Positions 28,686 to 48,698 of a stretch of DNA of 64,000 bases are shown here, piece by piece. Each line of letters begins with the position of its first letter. The first letter of the stretch is position 1. The DNA comes from Spirochaetaceae bacterium (GTDB lineage Bacteria; Spirochaetota; Spirochaetia; DSM-27196; SKKC01). The translations under genes were made by a program, and so were the position numbers. The notes under the pieces were generated by a model, which saw only the letters and a program-made list of their open reading frames with translations, ran no database searches and was not told where the DNA came from. Location: positions 189 to 64,188 of the forward strand of contig RECN01000071.1 in NCBI GenBank assembly GCA_007694005.1, given 5' to 3'.

Positions 28686-30014
28686 ATGAACACCAAGACG
28701 TTTTTCTCAGCTGACAGGGTGGTATTCCTCAGATCGCAGAACAAGCGAGATGCGATCGAGACTCTGGTGCGCACTGCCTGCGAGTCGGCTGACATACGGA
28801 ATCCGAGGCTGGTCGCTGATCTGGTGCTCGCGCGCGAGGACGAAATCTCAACAAAGGTGTCCGAAGGGGTCGCGATACCTCACGCCAAGTTGCCCGACTC
28901 CGACCGGACAGTCGGCTGCATCGGAATTTCCGCTGAGGGCGTTCCCTACGATGGCGGATCGGTTCACGTCATTGTGCTGATGCTCTGGGCGCACACGACA
29001 AACCTTCTGGTCCTCAGCGATCTCGGTCGTCTGCTGCGACGATCCGACCTCTACGAAGCGCTAAAGCGGTCCCGCACCGCGGAGCAGGTTCTGAAAGTCC
29101 TGTCGAATCCACCGACACGCGTAGAAAAGGAACCCGAGCGAAACCGGACCGCCTCGTCGACCTTCCTGCACGCGCTCAGACTCGCCGAGTCCATAGGCCT
29201 TGAGTCCGTCCTGCTTTTTCCCGACGCGATGGGGTCGGTTCATTTCTTCAAGTCTGAACCCGGCCTGCAGGATGCCCGGACATCGTTTCGCGGCCGGGTT
29301 CTGCTTCTGACCAACGACCCTGAGGCATACACGTCCGATGGTATTGTTGACGAGATCATAGACATGCCCGTTAAATCGGTCAGTGAGCACAACCTCACCA
29401 CCACATCGCTGCTTTTTCTGCTCAGTCGGGGCATTCTTGAAAAGACCGAGCGCGTCCTTACGGTATTCGGCGAACCTTCAAGCGGAGCACTGGATACCAT
29501 ACGGCTCACGAACCTGAAACGCGAGTTCGGCCCCCTGTTCAGGCTTCCCAGCGGCGGCGTCGGCGGAGACATTGACGATCTGGTGTTTGCGCGGGTCCTG
29601 CAACTGGCGACGGAGCTCGCCCAGGAAGGCCGGGAAGGGAAACCCGCGGGTACGATTTTCGTCCTTGGTGACTACGAGACGGTAAAGGGCTACTGTCACC
29701 AGCTGCTCGTCAATCCCTTTCGCGGTCTTGAGGCATCAGACCGGAACGTTCTCGACCCGAGCCTTGAAGAAACGGTGAAGGAGTTCTCGCGCATCGACGG
29801 GGCGTTTTTAATCAGCGGAGACGGTGTGATTCAGAGCGCGGGCACCTATCTGCGTGCCGATGTGGAAGTTCAGGACCTGCCGCAGGGGCTCGGTGCCCGG
29901 CACACTGCGGCAGCCGCCATTACTGCTGTCAGCGCATCCGTTTCCATAGCGATAAGCGAATCGACAAAGCGGATCTCCGTCTTTCGCCAGGGACGGCGCG
30001 TCATGAGCGCCTGA
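28686..30014 (+). CDS. PTS EIIA-domain / diadenylate cyclase (DAC, DisA_N) fusion
   Basis: N-terminal RE...ST...GVAIPHA (EIIA phospho-His); C-terminal EGREGKPAGT, IDGAF, GLGARHTAA and ISES DAC motifs. Confidence 0.85.
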   Translation: MNTKTFFSADRVVFLRSQNKRDAIETLVRTACESADIRNPRLVADLVLAREDEISTKVSEGVAIPHAKLPDSDRTVGCIGISAEGVPYDGGSVHVIVLMLWAHTTNLLVLSDLGRLLRRSDLYEALKRSRTAEQVLKVLSNPPTRVEKEPERNRTASSTFLHALRLAESIGLESVLLFPDAMGSVHFFKSEPGLQDARTSFRGRVLLLTNDPEAYTSDGIVDEIIDMPVKSVSEHNLTTTSLLFLLSRGILEKTERVLTVFGEPSSGALDTIRLTNLKREFGPLFRLPSGGVGGDIDDLVFARVLQLATELAQEGREGKPAGTIFVLGDYETVKGYCHQLLVNPFRGLEASDRNVLDPSLEETVKEFSRIDGAFLISGDGVIQSAGTYLRADVEVQDLPQGLGARHTAAAAITAVSASVSIAISESTKRISVFRQGRRVMSA

Positions 30015-30023
30015 TCCGGTCGC

Positions 30024-32294
30024 CTATGGCCCCGCGGCCGGAGGAGCCGCGTAGCGCGCAATAGCCTCGGCGCGCGCCGAAGCGCGCGCGCGTCGCAGGT
30101 CGTCGGCGCTGCCCCCCGGTGAAGATACACTGTCCGATTCCGGCAGGGGCTGCGTTCCGTCGTTCACCCGCATGACCGCGCCGGGATTACGGTCGAGAAA
30201 ACCTTTGACATCTTCGAAGGCTATGGCAAAAACCGACACCTTCGTCTCACTCGTTACCCTGAGTGTACTCGGCTGTTGGCGGTGTAGATCGCCCATGCTC
30301 CCGGCAAGCATACCACGCTGCAGTGTGTTCGTTTTTCCGCCCTCGTCTTCTACCCGGAGACGCCCGTCGCGCACCAGAAAGACTTCCTGCACAGCGGCCC
30401 CATGCTCAATGAGTACCTCAGAGGCTTCGTACTCTCGCGGCTGCAGCACCGACTCGAGCCACATCCGTTGATAGTCGGTCAGGTGAACGAAGGGCAGACC
30501 CTCAGCCAGCAGATTCCAGGTCTCTTCGCTGCGATTGCGGATGAGGCGCCTGAGCACGGTCTCGAACTCGGTGCCGGCGATAAAATTCAGGAATCGCGAC
30601 CGTTCTATGGACAGAACCTCGACTTCCGATTCGGCGACAACGTCGGCTGTACGGTCGCTGTCGGTCATGAGAGCAACCTCGCCAAAGTAGTCATACGCAC
30701 CAAGCGCTTTACCGCGCACGAGGTTGTCGACAAGGACCGCCGCGTTACCGTTCATGATGATGTAGAAGTAGTTCCCCCGGCTTCCCTTGCGGATGATATG
30801 CTCCCCGGCGCGAAAGGTCTGCCGTTCGACGATGCCGAAGAACTGTTGAACTTTGGGCACACTCAGGTCTCGAGCGAAATCGAGCTGCTTGAGGACATCG
30901 AGAACCCGGTAGGCTTCCTCGTATTGCGGCGGAGCCGTGTCAAGATAGCGGGTGTTCTCTATGCCGAACGAAGCGCGGCTCAACAGCGAATCAGTCGGAA
31001 AGTCCTTTTCTGCGATGTGGAAGCAGGTGATCCTGCGCTGTACGTCTTCGGGGAGGCTCGCCAGATAGGTAACAGGAGTGTGCAGCGGCGCTATCCCCGC
31101 TTCGTGGTAGATGACGTCTGCATCCCAGGGAAAGCTTTTCAGCTGTTCGTATCGTCGCTGATCGATCGTCCCGCCAGCACGCATCGATTCGTGGATATCG
31201 GGATCATTCTGGTGGTCACTCGAGTATACGAAGCTCTTGTCCTGAAATGTAAGGCGAAAGGCCATGGTCGGAATCGAATGGACCGAGTAATAGACCGTAA
31301 ACTCTCCCCCATGCACGTAGAAGCTCTGGTCTATATACACGGGGTGAAAATCGAAGAGCGACTTCAGGAAATCCGGGTGTTCGCCCGAGAAGGACGCGTA
31401 CTTTCGCAGAAAGCCCTGCATGATCGTCGGCGTCGTATATACGGTCACACGGCCTTCCTGAAGAATCTTCTGAAAGGTTCCCGCATCGTGGTCCGCATGG
31501 CAGTGAGTAAGAATGATGGAGTCTATGAACTTGGGGTTTACGTTCGACTGAAGCAGCCACTCGGTGCAGTTGACCGGAGGATCGACCATGATGCCGCTGT
31601 GATTAAGCCAGATAATGAAACCGGAGGTGTTATCATGTGGGTCAAAACCATGACTCGGCCCAAGGCAGGTCACCCCGAACCGCGGGGGGACAAAGGGAGT
31701 CGGCAACCGCTCACCAATATCATACTGTGGTGTGTAGGAGACCGCCGCCGGTACCGGGACCGCTTCCTGCCCGTCCCAACTGAACTGGAAGCTGTCGGCT
31801 GTACGGCGAATGTGCACCCCGTCGATTTCGACCACATCATCCTTGAAGCAGACAATATCAAACAGGTCTTCGAGGGCGAGCGACCCCCGGAAAAACGAGA
31901 GCTCGCGGCTGATATCGGGAACCCAGGCATTCAGGTCATCCGAAAAGAGGTCCTGTCGCAGATCAAGCTTCTCGGGTCCGAACACCGACTCCCGGATCGC
32001 AACCGAAAGCCGCGCACCCTGTTCTTCGGTGCAGCATATCGTAACCTTCTGTTTGCGTATGAAAAAGTTAAAGTAGATCGGAAACTCCATGTCTCCGACG
32101 TTGATGCCTTTCTGCCAGTGAAAAAGCTCGTGCGGGAGCACGAAGAATCTCGGGACCGACTCCGGCGTTACCAGCGTGTCCTTGATCGTCTCGGGCGGAG
32201 CTCCCACCTGTATGCCCCCGATCGGCGTCTGGACGATACGACCGCCACGCGGCAGCTCTACGACGGTCCCGACCTGTACTTCTGATTCCTTCAT
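30024..32294 (-). CDS. metallo-beta-lactamase-fold hydrolase with two cyclic-nucleotide-binding domains
   Basis: THCHADHD (HxHxDH), HSIPT and SSD; FGEVAL...RTADV cNMP cassette plus a second degenerate cNMP domain; promoter TTGCAG-17-TACACT upstream. Confidence 0.85.
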   Translation of the reverse strand: MKESEVQVGTVVELPRGGRIVQTPIGGIQVGAPPETIKDTLVTPESVPRFFVLPHELFHWQKGINVGDMEFPIYFNFFIRKQKVTICCTEEQGARLSVAIRESVFGPEKLDLRQDLFSDDLNAWVPDISRELSFFRGSLALEDLFDIVCFKDDVVEIDGVHIRRTADSFQFSWDGQEAVPVPAAVSYTPQYDIGERLPTPFVPPRFGVTCLGPSHGFDPHDNTSGFIIWLNHSGIMVDPPVNCTEWLLQSNVNPKFIDSIILTHCHADHDAGTFQKILQEGRVTVYTTPTIMQGFLRKYASFSGEHPDFLKSLFDFHPVYIDQSFYVHGGEFTVYYSVHSIPTMAFRLTFQDKSFVYSSDHQNDPDIHESMRAGGTIDQRRYEQLKSFPWDADVIYHEAGIAPLHTPVTYLASLPEDVQRRITCFHIAEKDFPTDSLLSRASFGIENTRYLDTAPPQYEEAYRVLDVLKQLDFARDLSVPKVQQFFGIVERQTFRAGEHIIRKGSRGNYFYIIMNGNAAVLVDNLVRGKALGAYDYFGEVALMTDSDRTADVVAESEVEVLSIERSRFLNFIAGTEFETVLRRLIRNRSEETWNLLAEGLPFVHLTDYQRMWLESVLQPREYEASEVLIEHGAAVQEVFLVRDGRLRVEDEGGKTNTLQRGMLAGSMGDLHRQQPSTLRVTSETKVSVFAIAFEDVKGFLDRNPGAVMRVNDGTQPLPESDSVSSPGGSADDLRRARASARAEAIARYAAPPAAGP

Positions 32295-32393
32295 TGCTCC
32301 CCCGCACCACACCGTATGGTTTTTGCAGTGTACTCGCGCTCCGGGTACGCTGCAATCTATACTATGTACTACACACTCGACGTGATTTCACGG

Positions 32394-32422
32394 TTGACGG
32401 CTCACCGGACCGGGTATAGCAT
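32394..32422 (+). promoter_or_regulatory. sigma70-type promoter for an intergenic transcript
   Basis: TTGACG-17-TAGCAT, the same hexamers and spacing as the hom promoter at 48661-48689. Confidence 0.7.
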
Positions 32423-32470
32423 CATGGTAGATGGAGTGTTAATCCTCCATGACAAACGGAGGCGTGAACT

Positions 32471-32515
32471 ATGAAGAGTGAATGCGTTCCGCCGGACAGG
32501 GAAGGCCGGGTATAA
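32471..32515 (+). CDS. putative 14-aa small ORF MKSECVPPDREGRV
   Basis: GGAGG at 32458-62, 8 nt before the ATG; the stop codon lies in a hairpin loop. Confidence 0.35.
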   Translation: MKSECVPPDREGRV

Positions 32516-32660
32516 TCCCGGCACCGAACAGAGATCGCAATCGTGCGATTCACTATCCCACCCGTGGCGCCAGTCGGCGCACACGAACAGGCGGTCGAGG
32601 CGACTGAAGCAGCAAACAGTCGTAGCGGGTATATCCCGAAATAAATGAAAAGACCGCGTC

Positions 32661-32688
32661 AGCCGGCTCACAAGGAGCCGGCTTTTTT
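32661..32688 (+). terminator. intrinsic terminator
   Basis: AGCCGGCTC-ACAAG-GAGCCGGCT followed by TTTTT. Confidence 0.85.
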
Positions 32689-32723
32689 ATGCCACCTCCT
32701 ATGGCGCTTGTCCTGCCCGATGA

Positions 32724-33608
32724 TCAGTACGATTTGCTCAGGGGGAGCGAGAGTTTCCGCCTCCTGAGGCCTGTGGTCGTAAACAGAAGTTCCCGCGCCT
32801 CGTCGTTCACCCACTCGAACACCGCGCGTGCGCCGAAGCCCTGACTGACAAAGGATACCGCCGTGTCGATGCAGAGGTAGCGGCCCTCGTACCGTTTCAG
32901 AAACACCCCGGAGGTCTGGGGTGTGTGCCCGCAGACGTAGACCCTGGCGCGATTATTGTGGAGGAAGGTATGCAGAACCGTCGTATAGTCGGGCTGCGTG
33001 TGCTGCCCCGCAGCGTCGGAACACAGTATGCTCGTCTCCGGCGAGAACAGCGACAGAGGCAGGTCAGCGTCTCCGCGACGAAAAGAAGGGGTGTACTGGT
33101 CGAGTTCCTGTTTTACCGCCCGATTGATGTCGGCAACCTGAAGATCACGAAAGACCGGAGGAAGGTCAGCCGGAGCAAAGATAAAGGGGTCAATCCGGAC
33201 GACCGCCGGCAGCGTCACGAGCCAGCGGGAGAGCCACCCTCCCGGAGCAAAGGCGGTCTCGAAAGCGGTCGCTTCGGCAGCAGCGTCGTCCTGATAGAAG
33301 GCACGTTCCGACGCGGAGGAGTCACGGTGTATTCCAAACAGGTTCATGAGTTCGTGCTTACCGAGAAGCGCGTAGACCCGGCTCCCCCGTTTCGGCGCCT
33401 GCGCCTGCAGCTGAATCAGCGATCGGTAGATTGATGCGCTGTCGGGGCCCCGGTCGCACACGTTCCCGAGAACGACAAATGCAGTGTCGGTCGCGGTAAA
33501 ACGGCCATTAGAATCGGTGAGTTCGCAGGCCCGCAGTATGTCCCGATAGAAGTCTACGTCTGCGTGAAGATCTCCGACAGCTATGATGCGCTTGAACGCA
33601 CGGGCCAT
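32724..33608 (-). CDS. calcineurin-like metallophosphoesterase (Shewanella-like phosphatase type) with degenerate motifs
   Basis: GDLHAD, GNVCDRG, GKHE, GHT and IDT motifs. Confidence 0.78.
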   Translation of the reverse strand: MARAFKRIIAVGDLHADVDFYRDILRACELTDSNGRFTATDTAFVVLGNVCDRGPDSASIYRSLIQLQAQAPKRGSRVYALLGKHELMNLFGIHRDSSASERAFYQDDAAAEATAFETAFAPGGWLSRWLVTLPAVVRIDPFIFAPADLPPVFRDLQVADINRAVKQELDQYTPSFRRGDADLPLSLFSPETSILCSDAAGQHTQPDYTTVLHTFLHNNRARVYVCGHTPQTSGVFLKRYEGRYLCIDTAVSFVSQGFGARAVFEWVNDEARELLFTTTGLRRRKLSLPLSKSY

Positions 33609-33637
33609 ACTCGTGTCCCCCGGGCCTCAGATTTGCA

Positions 33638-34402
33638 TCAGAACATCATGAAAGTCAATACAAGAAACAAGCCCATGCCGAGCAGGCCGACGACCCCGCT
33701 TCCCTTAAGGTTCCAGAATGCGAGCTGACCGACAGACTCGAGAAACCAGGTCAGGAGGTACACAATGAGCAGGGGCACGACCGGCAGCACGAAGGGTCCG
33801 AGGACAAGCCTGACAGCGAAGGTAATCAGACTGGCACCCAGAAACCAGCCGAAGAGATTCTGAAAAGGAATGCCGAAATACCAGCCATCCTGCTCCCATT
33901 CCCAGAACCCCCAACCGACCATCTGCGGGTCGAGAAACAGATCCCAGGCGGCAAAAGCTGCACCGGCGACCAGGGAGAAGGCGAAAATGTTCCCGCCGGG
34001 GACGAGGACGGTCGCGACCGCCCAGGCCGGCGGCATCATCATGATCCAGGCGATGGGGATGAGGACCGGCACCTCTCCGATCTGCGGCTGTAATACCTTC
34101 GTGTAGTGATAGCGTCCAAACGGATGGCCGGTGTGACTGCCGACAAACTCAAGGACCCAGCCGAGGACCGCCACGAGGACAGCGGCGATGAGCGTCGCCC
34201 GCAAGCCTGCCCCGAGAGCCATAAGCGCCAGGACGGTTGAAGCCTGAAGCAGTACACCGACGGATACGCCAAAGGGGACCGCCGAGTCAGAAAACACCCA
34301 TCTGATGATCGGCAAGCCTATCATCGAGAGTAGCCACACAGTACCAAGCAGCAGGACAGCCACCGGCATCTCAGAGAGCGAAGCAATCATGTGTTCAAGC
34401 AT
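33638..34402 (-). CDS. cruF: carotenoid 1,2-hydratase (CruF-like membrane protein)
   Basis: E..G..TGHPFGRYHY, VPVLIPIAW, WDLFLDP and GIPFQNLFGW motifs; adjacent to a lycopene cyclase. Confidence 0.75.
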   Translation of the reverse strand: MLEHMIASLSEMPVAVLLLGTVWLLSMIGLPIIRWVFSDSAVPFGVSVGVLLQASTVLALMALGAGLRATLIAAVLVAVLGWVLEFVGSHTGHPFGRYHYTKVLQPQIGEVPVLIPIAWIMMMPPAWAVATVLVPGGNIFAFSLVAGAAFAAWDLFLDPQMVGWGFWEWEQDGWYFGIPFQNLFGWFLGASLITFAVRLVLGPFVLPVVPLLIVYLLTWFLESVGQLAFWNLKGSGVVGLLGMGLFLVLTFMMF

Positions 34403-34404
34403 AT

Positions 34405-35574
34405 TCAGGACCTTATTACCCGCCAGCCCGCCTTCAGAAAGGTCGGAATGGGTACGGTAGACATGAGTTTCAGATTTTCGCCTATGCCGCCTTCCTCGTC
34501 GAGAAAGCGGAACATGCGGGTGACAGGATTCCGGTCGAAGAAGCGAACAAAGACATGTTCGGCAAGATCTCCGCGATCGAGCAATACCTGCAGGAGTATG
34601 GAATCAAAACGGAAGTATCGGGGCGGTGTACGGGGAAGATCGAAGGGATGCCCGGTCCGCTTGAGCGAATCTACGATGGCTTCCGAGTCCCACTGCATGC
34701 GCATGAACGCGTAGCCGGTGGACGCTTTGACCCGTCCGCCTCTCGTGCCGGTGCGCAGGATGTGACGTCCACCAGATCGTTCAAAAGGCTGGTCTGTCAT
34801 GGGGATTATGCAGGACTCTTCTGCGGTGATTTCGTAGTCGGTAATGCCGAGCACGCCGTGGATGTAATCGCGAATCCGCCGATCGTACTCTTCGGGAGGC
34901 AGCGTCTGCGGGCTGAACAGCGTGTACTCCACGAGGGCCTCCCGCGGACTCCAGGGCAGAACGTAGAAGAAGCGCATGACATCGTGCTGTGGTGTCCGAA
35001 AGTCGAACATGCGCGCGACGTCCACATCGAAAAAGTCCTGGGGCAGGCGTATTTCCACGCCTTTGAAGTGCTGCTTCAGGTTCCGGTACTTCGATTCGTC
35101 GACGACAAGGTTCTGGTATTTCCAGAGACTGTCGAATACCCACCGACCCCGACAGGTACGGCCTCCGGCCACGATCTCCGCGCCGTCGTCGGTGTCGCGG
35201 ACCTGATCGACCGTAGCGGTAAGAATTTCCACGTGCGGACACGCCGCCAGGCGCTCCTTCACAAAGCGATAGAAGTCCTCGGAACGAAGCATCTGATATC
35301 GATACGGAGCAAGCGGCAGAACAAGGTCCTTCCCGTCACCGGTGATCTGCAGCGTATCCCAGCTTTTTCGGGCGATACCGTCGAATGGTGTATCGCCTGT
35401 GACCCAGTAACACCAGGTGCGGTCGTTCAGGCTCTTGTCTTCCTCGTCGACGATGAGGATGCGGGAATCTTCAAAACCGCCTTCGACGAGATGCCAGGCC
35501 AGACTCAGGCCTGCTCCTCCGCCACCCGCGAGAATGAAATCGTAGTCGGCGGAGACCGCCCCTGCGTGCGCCAT
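34405..35574 (-). CDS. lycopene cyclase family protein (CrtY/CrtL-like)
   Basis: GGGGAGLSLA FAD motif, NDRTWCYW, FFYVLP, LVEYT, IPM and KASTGYAF. Confidence 0.85.
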   Translation of the reverse strand: MAHAGAVSADYDFILAGGGGAGLSLAWHLVEGGFEDSRILIVDEEDKSLNDRTWCYWVTGDTPFDGIARKSWDTLQITGDGKDLVLPLAPYRYQMLRSEDFYRFVKERLAACPHVEILTATVDQVRDTDDGAEIVAGGRTCRGRWVFDSLWKYQNLVVDESKYRNLKQHFKGVEIRLPQDFFDVDVARMFDFRTPQHDVMRFFYVLPWSPREALVEYTLFSPQTLPPEEYDRRIRDYIHGVLGITDYEITAEESCIIPMTDQPFERSGGRHILRTGTRGGRVKASTGYAFMRMQWDSEAIVDSLKRTGHPFDLPRTPPRYFRFDSILLQVLLDRGDLAEHVFVRFFDRNPVTRMFRFLDEEGGIGENLKLMSTVPIPTFLKAGWRVIRS

Positions 35575-35640
35575 GCCACCAATGTACCGCTCGCACAATC
35601 GCTTGACAACGAGAAAGCACCGTGCCCACACTGCATTCAT

Positions 35641-36621
35641 ATGCGAATACTTGTTGCCGGCGGCGCCGGGTACATCGGCAGTCACGTTACACGGGCCCTG
35701 CTCGATTCGGGCTACGAGGTCTGTGTCTTCGACGACTTCTCATCGGGTCAGGAAGAAAATCTCTTCCCGGAGGCACAGCTCGTCCGCGGAAACATCAAGG
35801 ACAGTGCCCTGATCGGTGAGACCCTGAGCACAGGCTTTGACGCGGTCGTTCATCTTGCAGCCTTCAAGGCCGCGGGTGAAAGTATGACCGAACCCGGAAA
35901 GTACGCCGACAACAACATTGCCGGTACGATCACGCTTCTCAACGCCATGGTCGAGCACGGGGTCGAGAACATCGTATTCTCGAGTTCAGCCGCCGTATAC
36001 GGGGAGCCGCAGTACATTCCGGTGGACGAAGCCCATCCGACCAACCCGGAAAATTTTTACGGGTTTACCAAGCTTGAGATCGAGCGGATCATGGGGTGGT
36101 ACGACAGACTAACCGGGCTCAAGAGCGCGTGCCTGCGCTACTTCAACGCAGCCGGGTACGATACCGACGGGCGGATCGGAGGGCTCGAACGCAACCCGGC
36201 GAATCTGCTGCCGGTTATCATGGAAGTCGCCGCAGGCACACGGAAAGAGCTCTCGATATTCGGAAACGACTACGATACGCCGGACGGAACCTGTATTCGC
36301 GATTACGTGCACGTAACGGATCTGGCGAACGCCCACGTGGCTGCGCTGCACTATCTGTTCGAAACACACGAAAGTATCGCGGTGAACCTTGGAAGTGAAC
36401 AGGGATACAGCGTACAGGAAATGCTCGAAGTGGCGCGCCGTGTGACCGGAAAGGAAATCCCGTCGAGGATTGTGGAGCGACGCGCCGGCGATCCGGCGAG
36501 GCTTGTCGCATCGAGCAGCATGGCATCACACAGCTTCAGCTGGGATACGCTGTTCTCGGACCCGGAGACCCTCGTCGAAACAACCTGGGAAGCCTATCAG
36601 AAGCACATGAGGACACCGTAG
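35641..36621 (+). CDS. galE: UDP-glucose 4-epimerase
   Basis: GGAGYIGSH, FSSSAAVYG, YGFTK, LRYFNAAG and DGTCIRDYVHV motifs; true start MRILVAG. Confidence 0.95.
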   Translation: MRILVAGGAGYIGSHVTRALLDSGYEVCVFDDFSSGQEENLFPEAQLVRGNIKDSALIGETLSTGFDAVVHLAAFKAAGESMTEPGKYADNNIAGTITLLNAMVEHGVENIVFSSSAAVYGEPQYIPVDEAHPTNPENFYGFTKLEIERIMGWYDRLTGLKSACLRYFNAAGYDTDGRIGGLERNPANLLPVIMEVAAGTRKELSIFGNDYDTPDGTCIRDYVHVTDLANAHVAALHYLFETHESIAVNLGSEQGYSVQEMLEVARRVTGKEIPSRIVERRAGDPARLVASSSMASHSFSWDTLFSDPETLVETTWEAYQKHMRTP

Positions 36622-48619: not shown

Positions 48620-48698
48620 ATAACTAGAATCGGAGCGAACAGCCGTCTGCTTGAGTTTGGTTGACGCGGTGCCGAAGCCTCAGTAGCATTCGAGGACT

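Follow-up and report, generated by a model that had tools for sequence, protein, structure and literature searches.

Known dual-function small RNAs include SgrS/SgrT, RNAIII/hld, and SR1/SR1P, and mgtL and mgtP are the proline-codon leader open reading frames (ORFs) of Salmonella mgtA and mgtCBR, respectively. During translation, consecutive prolines are joined slowly unless elongation factor P (EF-P) assists, and the ribosome covers roughly 12–15 nt downstream of its P site. To our knowledge, almost nothing is known about the small RNAs of free-living spirochaetes. Here we describe a small-RNA gene in a 64-kb stretch of DNA from a Spirochaetaceae bacterium (contig RECN01000071.1; this whole stretch is called the window, and coordinates are positions in it). 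The gene is a stand-alone unit at 32394–32689 of the plus strand, made up of a sigma-70-type promoter, a folded RNA of ~260 nt, and an intrinsic terminator, and it contains a short ORF with two consecutive proline codons, the Pro-Pro mini-ORF.

The small RNA rnTrpL of Sinorhizobium meliloti (rnTrpL/peTrpL; PMC7968998, PMC7298713) derives from an attenuator and encodes a leader peptide of 14 residues. It resembles the spirochaete RNA in being a short, terminated transcript in which a Shine-Dalgarno sequence precedes a ~14-codon leader ORF that holds two diagnostic codons, and in being released as a stable RNA that could act in trans. However, rnTrpL is the leader of trpE(G), which still attenuates its downstream gene and uses Trp codons, whereas the spirochaete RNA has Pro-Pro codons, is followed by no co-oriented gene, has no antiterminator that we could find, and shares no sequence or Rfam similarity with rnTrpL. 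EF-P-dependent leaders (PMC6460261, PMC5021804) and proline leaders of the mgtL type likewise place a very short proline-codon ORF in a long structured RNA, and the use of ribosome speed at a proline step as a signal is the feature that we propose here for the spirochaete RNA. In contrast to mgtL and mgtP, which are 5′ leaders controlling a downstream gene in cis, this RNA stands alone with a strong terminator, and it has no homology to them. Like the dual-function small RNAs (reviews PMC12612679, PMC12310071), it has a promoter and a terminator of its own, is structured, and carries a conserved small ORF; the known dual-function peptides are conserved and have a function of their own, whereas here just Pro-Pro and its immediate neighbors are kept, in an ORF of 9–41 codons. 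CsrB/RsmZ sponges and 6S RNA are also abundant, structured, and stand-alone, but the spirochaete RNA has no enrichment of GGA in its loops, no rod-with-bubble fold, and no Rfam match. A full-text literature search met no description of this RNA in the portions of text that it covered. RNAs with a small ORF, or of a leader-like kind, are already known; the stand-alone Pro-Pro design is new.

The promoter (32394–32422, +), found by a consensus scan, consists of a −35 element, TTGACG (32394–32399), a 17-nt spacer, and a −10 element, TAGCAT (32417–32422), from which transcription would start at about 32429. The terminator (32661–32689, +), also found by scanning, has a 9-bp stem with seven G-C pairs (32661–32683), a 5-nt loop, and a T6 tract. 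By itself the consensus scan is not significant, as it gave 1 promoter-like site against 0.8 ± 0.9 in shuffled sequences and 4 terminator-like sites against 1.8 ± 1.3. The exact arrangement TTGACG-17-TAGCAT has one further copy in the window, at 48661–48689 (+), and none of 100 shuffles gave any match; this second site was named the hom promoter in the original prediction and is a candidate for it. Both promoter and terminator are kept in all four genomes of the source genus (g1, represented by the source genome G000 and three other species), in which the flanking sequence diverges by 22–30%; the conserved elements include the −35 and the promoter block GCGGGTATAGCAT. A TTGAC-type promoter is also present in 15 of the 16 homologues that bear the mini-ORF, and the RNA gene is single-copy in its genome.

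Folding of 32425–32690 (+, 266 nt) gave a minimum free energy (MFE) of −108.7 kcal/mol compared with −81.9 ± 5.1 for 200 shuffles (z = −5.30, none of the 200 as good), and the minus strand of the same stretch folds nearly equally (z = −4.66). The plus strand is favored because one G-U pair in each of the stems 32533/32550 and 32600/32623, as well as a U-G pair in the terminator of one congener, would turn into a C-A mismatch if the minus strand were the RNA, and because a T-tract follows the terminator hairpin on the plus strand only.

The region 31000–34000 is partly present in nine public sequencing runs, three of which are recorded as RNA, and the contigs of those three and of one DNA run were compared. 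In two RNA runs from the same study, the only contig on these 3 kb came from the small-RNA gene (32472–32680 at a depth of 6 in run X8, and 32462–32681 at a depth of 13 in run X9). In the third RNA run, from another study (X5), a contig covering 32439–32657 had a depth of 475, compared with 4.9–5.6 for three pieces of the neighboring gene and 6 for a short piece at 33918–33951; such contigs give neither strand, true ends, nor a reliable expression level, and their depth is a poor measure for ranking genes. The DNA run (X1) was roughly flat over the stretch, at ~10–30. The range covered in the RNA runs lies between the predicted start and the terminator, the contigs ending at 32657, 32680, and 32681; no RNA contig of X5, X8, or X9 falls in 32682–33917, which we do not count against read-through. 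These data confirm that the stretch is a real, expressed small-RNA gene that is abundant in RNA libraries. An independently transcribed, highly structured plus-strand RNA between a promoter and a U-tract terminator at these positions was the central claim of the original prediction, and it is borne out by the conservation of both elements in congeners and by a contig depth far above that of the neighboring genes.

The same prediction reported no long plus-strand ORF in the unit. This stands for a 56-codon GTG frame (32478–32648), which is broken by stops in the congener G003, but the statement overlooked a conserved ORF of 14 codons plus stop at 32471–32515 (+), encoding MKSECVPPDREGRV. Its Shine-Dalgarno sequence, GGAGG (32458–32462), ends 8 nt before the ATG, its Pro-Pro codons (codons 7 and 8) lie at 32489–32494, and its TAA (32513–32515) falls in the loop of a hairpin, H3 (32505–32522; GCCGGG, a 6-nt loop, CCCGGC), that begins exactly 10 nt past the Pro-Pro codons. 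Among 17 homologues from five genera, 16 have GGAG(G/A), 5–8 nt, ATG, 1–7 codons, and an in-frame Pro-Pro, the sole exception being G001, from which the mini-ORF is absent. The ATG precedes the first Pro codon by 6, 15, 18, or 24 nt, in every case a whole number of codons, and the Shine-Dalgarno sequence shifts along with the ATG. The 10-nt spacing from Pro-Pro to the hairpin and the GCCGG 5′ arm occur in all 16, and the CCGGC 3′ arm is present in all 15 that are not N-masked (it is unreadable in G061, where the locus is masked).

The encoded peptides differ between genera. In g1 they are MKSECVPPDREGRV, a variant of that peptide with S as its last residue, and MTSECVPPIHSGRR; the g3 peptide is MRDVEPPLYGSRD; and those of g2, MNGAYDPPD and MVGGHNPPD, end one codon past Pro-Pro. 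The g4 peptides begin with MEPPLFSGRFAGT and MAPPLFESRFAGT, and those of g13 follow the pattern M..RG.(A/E)EPPV..(G/C)R.... Lengths in the called frames are 9, 13, 14, 21–25, and 23–41 residues. The residue preceding Pro-Pro is Glu in g3, g13, and three of the four g4 genomes. Codon usage varies where residues do not: Pro-Pro is encoded by CCA CCG in G019, g13 genomes use either GUU or GUC for the Val that follows Pro-Pro, and the Phe codon is UUC in g4 but UUU in G034. Past the 5′ arm of H3, the nucleotides (CCGGCACA) are conserved, yet g4 and g13 do not read them in the same frame.

Because the ATG and Pro-Pro stay in frame at varying distances, the Shine-Dalgarno sequence moves with the ATG, and the CCA CCG, Val, and Phe codons change synonymously, the comparison of homologues shows that selection acts on the reading frame of the mini-ORF. 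What is selected appears to be translation up to and through Pro-Pro, not a given peptide, because the g4 and g13 frames differ past the 5′ arm of H3 and the g2 ORFs stop after PPD; on this comparison, the peptide tail is dispensable. The RNA is therefore not simply non-coding, since the only part of it conserved across the five genera is the Shine-Dalgarno sequence, the Pro-Pro mini-ORF, and the hairpin that follows.

Based on these features, we propose that ribosomes at Pro-Pro gate the fate of the RNA, which would make it an "orphan leader" or dual-function small RNA, a reading to which we give an even chance. It would consist of two modules, a conserved one (Shine-Dalgarno sequence, AUG, 1–7 codons, Pro-Pro, 10 nt, H3) and a lineage-specific 3′ part that ends in the terminator. 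We infer translation, stalling at Pro-Pro, and action in trans. Ribosomes would initiate on the mini-ORF and slow at Pro-Pro in a step that depends on EF-P (the efp gene is present in the genome) and on prolyl-tRNA. Because a ribosome covers ~12–15 nt past its P site, the front edge of one paused at Pro-Pro would just reach the base of H3. How the transcript folds, or how stable it is, would then depend on ribosome occupancy, and the trans-acting part would be the 3′ module, with putative RNA or protein partners. A fuller version, in which a free-standing, ribosome-gated small RNA uses the Pro-Pro pause to report EF-P or prolyl-tRNA status and thereby switches the stability or conformation of a lineage-specific, trans-acting 3′ effector domain, is put forward only tentatively and is more likely wrong than right.

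The conservation of the mini-ORF could also mean that the transcript is a micropeptide mRNA, in which the peptide of 9–41 residues is the effector and the 3′ part serves as a stabilizing 3′ untranslated region (UTR) and terminator. The Shine-Dalgarno sequence, ATG, and in-frame Pro-Pro of 16 of the 17 homologues, together with an E-P-P-(V/L) similarity kept through synonymous changes, fit this explanation. However, peptide length and sequence vary widely around Pro-Pro, which alone is invariant, the g2 ORFs stop one codon later, and past the 5′ arm of H3 it is the nucleotides that are conserved, not the frame. In addition, no constant neighboring gene could serve as a partner or modifying enzyme, and G001, which has no ORF, keeps the 30-nt core of the 3′ domain. 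We therefore consider a micropeptide mRNA unlikely.

The 3′ domain is where the orphan-leader reading places the effector. The MFE fold (structural alignments comprised 3–7 sequences per module) reproduced the four hairpins and the three-way junction that had been described from the window alone. Hairpin H1 (32431–32450, +) has a 3′ arm with CCUCC, complementary to the downstream Shine-Dalgarno sequence, and is partly retained in G003, where two of its six pairs are broken. The sixth pair of H3 covaries (A-U in 4, G-C in 2, and other in 1). Hairpin H4 (32533–32550, +) has 7 bp, including one G-U pair, and a loop that differs in G003. Hairpin H5 (32562–32584, +) is kept in G001 via changed pairs; in the g1 alignment, columns 30/39 change from G-C to C-G, and columns 32/37 are C-G, U-A, or U-G. 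The three-way junction (32591–32657, +) is composed of P1 (32591–32596 with 32652–32657), P2 (32600–32623), P3 (32626–32638), and an A-rich joiner (32639–32651). The loop of P2 has 10 nt, AAGCAGCAAA, and a 30-nt block spanning P2 and the start of P3 (32600–32629) is identical in all four g1 genomes; variation within the genus falls in the P3 loop, the A-rich joiner, and the flanks.

In the other homologues, the core is followed by 0–3 hairpins, plus a three-way junction in family f1, and then by the terminator. An analogous junction in g2 is closed by GCGG-N2–3, and the closing stem covaries; within f1, the GCGG-led stem continues with UC/GA here and with CA/UG, CCG/CGG, or CUG/CAG in g2. The interior of the junction cannot be aligned between genera, and the 3′ half is lineage-specific, although it hardly changes inside g1. 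The terminator stems and H3 have a palindromic core, GCCGGC, in common in g1, g3, g4, and g13, and the terminators of g4 and g13 hardly differ (AGCCGGCA.TGA.TGCCGGC) though they come from different families, which is more than the usual conservation of terminators.

G001 contains a short form of the unit (locus L004, 1448–1615), in which the same promoter is joined directly to H5, the junction, and the terminator, for a predicted transcript of ~130 nt. Its promoter block lies ~130 nt nearer to the 3′ domain, and the 5′ half, including the mini-ORF, is missing. Because G001 keeps the 30-nt P2 block unchanged without a mini-ORF, the 3′ module is, on this evidence, a part with a function of its own.

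The family was delimited by several searches. BLAST against 40 relatives gave a match in all three other g1 species, plus one 39-nt match in G018 (E = 9e-4) that was treated as chance. An exact 20-mer scan of a species-representative genome collection found only the same three congeners, and searches of metagenome contigs with an exact 20-mer and with a gapped 25-base motif gave 0 matches each. A model of the mini-ORF module built from g1 alone recovered the held-out G007 of g2 (27.8 bits) and G005 of g3 (23.4 bits), and a BLAST query with the unit of G007 located it elsewhere in the genomes of G004 and G009. The rebuilt mini-ORF model (R3) gave five matches outside family f1, at 26–31 bits, of which only G010, in another family, was real; the other four (G041, G052, G063, and G075) lie in coding sequence. 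BLAST from G010 found the unit in 4 of 4 g4 genomes and in 0 of 17 genomes of three other genera of that family. When a motif pattern was applied to 99 genomes of the order, it brought in G034, which belongs to a third family; its matches in G053, G035, and G088 lie in coding sequence. BLAST from G034 found 5 of 5 genomes of g13. In the rest of the class (401 and 158 genomes), the same kind of motif pattern found nothing real: the matches in G126, G260, and G107 were out of frame or looked like ordinary gene starts, with G126 judged from the matched string alone. Reversed-pattern controls gave 2, 3, and 2 matches. A model of the 3′ core (R1, 138 positions) found the four g1 genomes among the 99 of the order, and its eight further matches (23–30 bits) were terminator-only alignments. 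Weak core-model matches (24–25 bits) at G000:C35:27070–27136 and G002:C111:22978–23044 consist of a small hairpin and a GCCG-type terminator conserved between the two genomes, and each is probably just a terminator.

Together, 17 genomes have the unit (g1, 4 of 4; g2, 3 of 5; g3, 1 of 1; g4, 4 of 4; g13, 5 of 5); their five genera belong to three of the order's 11 sampled families. On these searches it is an undescribed RNA family, with no member met outside one order of Spirochaetia.

The prediction made from the window alone had taken the RNA for a member of no known class, and Rfam 15 (4227 models) at gathering thresholds indeed gave no match anywhere in the window. That prediction had gone on to suggest a protein-sequestering RNA with repeated binding loops. 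More broadly, the transcript could be a purely non-coding RNA, either a sponge for a protein such as CsrA or RNA polymerase or a base-pairing small RNA with a seed in the P2 loop. It is abundant, structured, and terminated, it has an invariant 30-nt block with a 10-nt loop in g1, and a csrA gene is present in the genome, which is non-discriminating. The repeated features do not hold up: the CGGG-TATA(A)T-CCCG loops and GAACAG linkers that were noted do exist in this genome, but loops and linkers differ in the congeners. GGA words number 5 against 6.2 expected, none of the 5 is mostly unpaired, and none of the 12 homologues scored shows marked GGA enrichment. The fold is a string of separate hairpins with a junction and not the 6S rod, closed by its ends, with a central bubble; RF00013 (6S) had no match in the window or the genome, a model that detects 6S RNA in only 5 of 14 control genomes. 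The signal recognition particle RNA of the genome is located elsewhere (G000:C10:20958–21056, 71.2 bits). A tmRNA-like reading of GCA GCA AAC in the P2 loop was rejected, as that frame has no stop in G003 or G001. With no Hfq gene found by PF17209 and no target above shuffled seeds (both below), and with the frame-preserving conservation of Shine-Dalgarno sequence, ATG, and Pro-Pro across five genera left unexplained, a purely non-coding function is improbable, and the sequestering role in particular is not supported by the loop, linker, GGA, and fold data.

In attenuators, a Shine-Dalgarno sequence precedes a short leader ORF that holds diagnostic codons; the same is present here, and the unit might accordingly be a conditional terminator, that is, a ribosome-dependent attenuator or riboswitch whose read-through gives antisense RNA to convergent genes and sense RNA in some lineages. 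The layout of leader peptide, hairpins, and terminator is attenuator-like, and the GCCGGC core common to H3 and the terminator makes cross-pairing conceivable. In a permissive E-value mode on 32200–32800, the sole Rfam match was Trp_leader (RF00513), but its score of 14.7 bits (E = 4.6) is far below the cut-off of 41, and it is the terminator that carries the alignment. The 9-bp terminator is self-contained, the 3′ strand of P1 ending 3 nt before it, and no antiterminator helix mutually exclusive with it was found in this RNA, nor was one conserved across genera; stable hairpins fill the ~135 nt between H3 and the terminator. No co-oriented gene lies downstream in g1, g3, or g2, where the next gene is convergent, and the arrangement in g4 is variable. 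The junction sequence is also unconserved across genera, unlike a ligand pocket. We regard a conditional terminator as very improbable. The properties of a dual-function small RNA that the orphan-leader reading calls for, namely an own promoter, a terminator, and RNA in libraries, are present.

The unit lies in an intergenic interval (32313–32723) flanked by two minus-strand genes. One, whose start faces the interval, encodes a cNMP-binding protein of 762 codons with a metallo-beta-lactamase fold (cNMP/MBL; 30024–32312), and the other, whose stop faces it, encodes a calcineurin-like metallophosphoesterase (32724–33608). A block at 32327–32355 is kept in all four g1 genomes; its minus-strand reading, TTGCAG-17-TACACT, precedes the start of the cNMP/MBL gene by ~35 nt and points away from the small-RNA promoter, the two −35 boxes being 36 nt apart. 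Although this block scores under the threshold of the consensus scan, it is probably the cNMP/MBL gene's own promoter, and, if so, the structured RNA is not the 5′ UTR of that gene. The cNMP/MBL gene is present in 10 of 10 genomes of family f1. The unit is upstream of its orthologue in G005 (g3) and G007 (g2), and it is not upstream of the orthologue in G006, G008, or one contig of G009. Depending on lineage, the flanking pairs are cNMP/MBL and the metallophosphoesterase, cNMP/MBL and PFK, or glycerate-kinase-like and PFK, and g4 has a co-oriented preceding gene, read as serC-like from its translated end. Because the flanking genes differ between lineages, the RNA is regarded as a gene in its own right. 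That it is instead a cis element of a minus-strand neighbor (the cNMP/MBL 5′ UTR or the metallophosphoesterase 3′ UTR), as its position between the two genes and the well-folding minus strand might suggest, is barely credible given the C-A mismatches and the T-tract orientation, the candidate cNMP/MBL promoter, the other neighbors in G009, g4, and g13, and the three genomes whose cNMP/MBL orthologues have no unit upstream.

In G061 (g4, locus L057), the mini-ORF begins ~20 nt past the stop of the preceding serC-like gene, no promoter-like site was found, and the rest of the unit is N-masked; there the RNA may be co-transcribed with the serC-like gene. In the window, three adjacent genes of nucleotide-signaling type occupy 28686–33608: a fusion of PTS-EIIA with a DisA-type diadenylate cyclase (28686–30014, +), cNMP/MBL, and the calcineurin-like phosphoesterase. 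The small RNA lies amid these genes here but is not linked to them in other genera. Carotenoid genes are found further along on the minus strand of this spirochaete genome (Caroten_synth, 33638–34402; lycopene cyclase, 34405–35685).

Several observations weigh against a ribosome-gated RNA that acts in trans, in addition to the limits of contig data given above. G001 shows that the mini-ORF is dispensable. The CCGCCG and GCCGG blocks could partly be kept for RNA pairing and not for coding, and in the g1 consensus fold CGCC pairs with GGCG beside the Shine-Dalgarno sequence. Covariation in g1 is thin, with two-sided changes in 2 of 35 pairs of the 3′ core (4 sequences) and in just 2 of 68 pairs of the full-length RNA (3 sequences). 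A single shared function in trans is doubtful because the 3′ module is not conserved between genera. PF17209 (Hfq) had no match in the genome, which is 96% complete, and this makes a classical small RNA dependent on Hfq unlikely. A search with RNAduplex of the invariant P2 hairpin and loop against 9768 candidate start regions did no better than shuffled seeds: the best energy was −24.3 kcal/mol, compared with minima of −19.7 to −26.5 for 20 shuffled seeds, which were tested on one quarter of these regions, and 250 duplexes lay at or below −14 for the real seed compared with 169–950 for the shuffles. A full-length duplex with the 5′ region of efp was uninformative, falling at the 88th percentile of random segments. 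A switch in which the Pro-Pro codons pair with the 5′ strand of P1 (CCGCC:GGCGG) fits g1, g2, and g3 and fails in g4; it was dropped as a general mechanism because g4 is without a GGCGG-closed junction.

The finding adds a whole RNA family, present in 17 genomes of three families, that curated models had missed and whose RNA ranks with the more abundant transcripts of its organism in environmental RNA. What sets the design apart is that a leader-peptide-like Pro-Pro ORF has been held in frame over long evolution and is attached to no gene. It offers a natural test case for ribosome pausing that regulates a small RNA itself and for attenuator leaders that evolve into independent regulators, and the short form in G001 is a natural comparison for function. 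The family also illustrates that "no long ORF" does not equal non-coding. If the ribosome-gated reading is true, it would represent a new wiring of translation-elongation status into small-RNA regulation.

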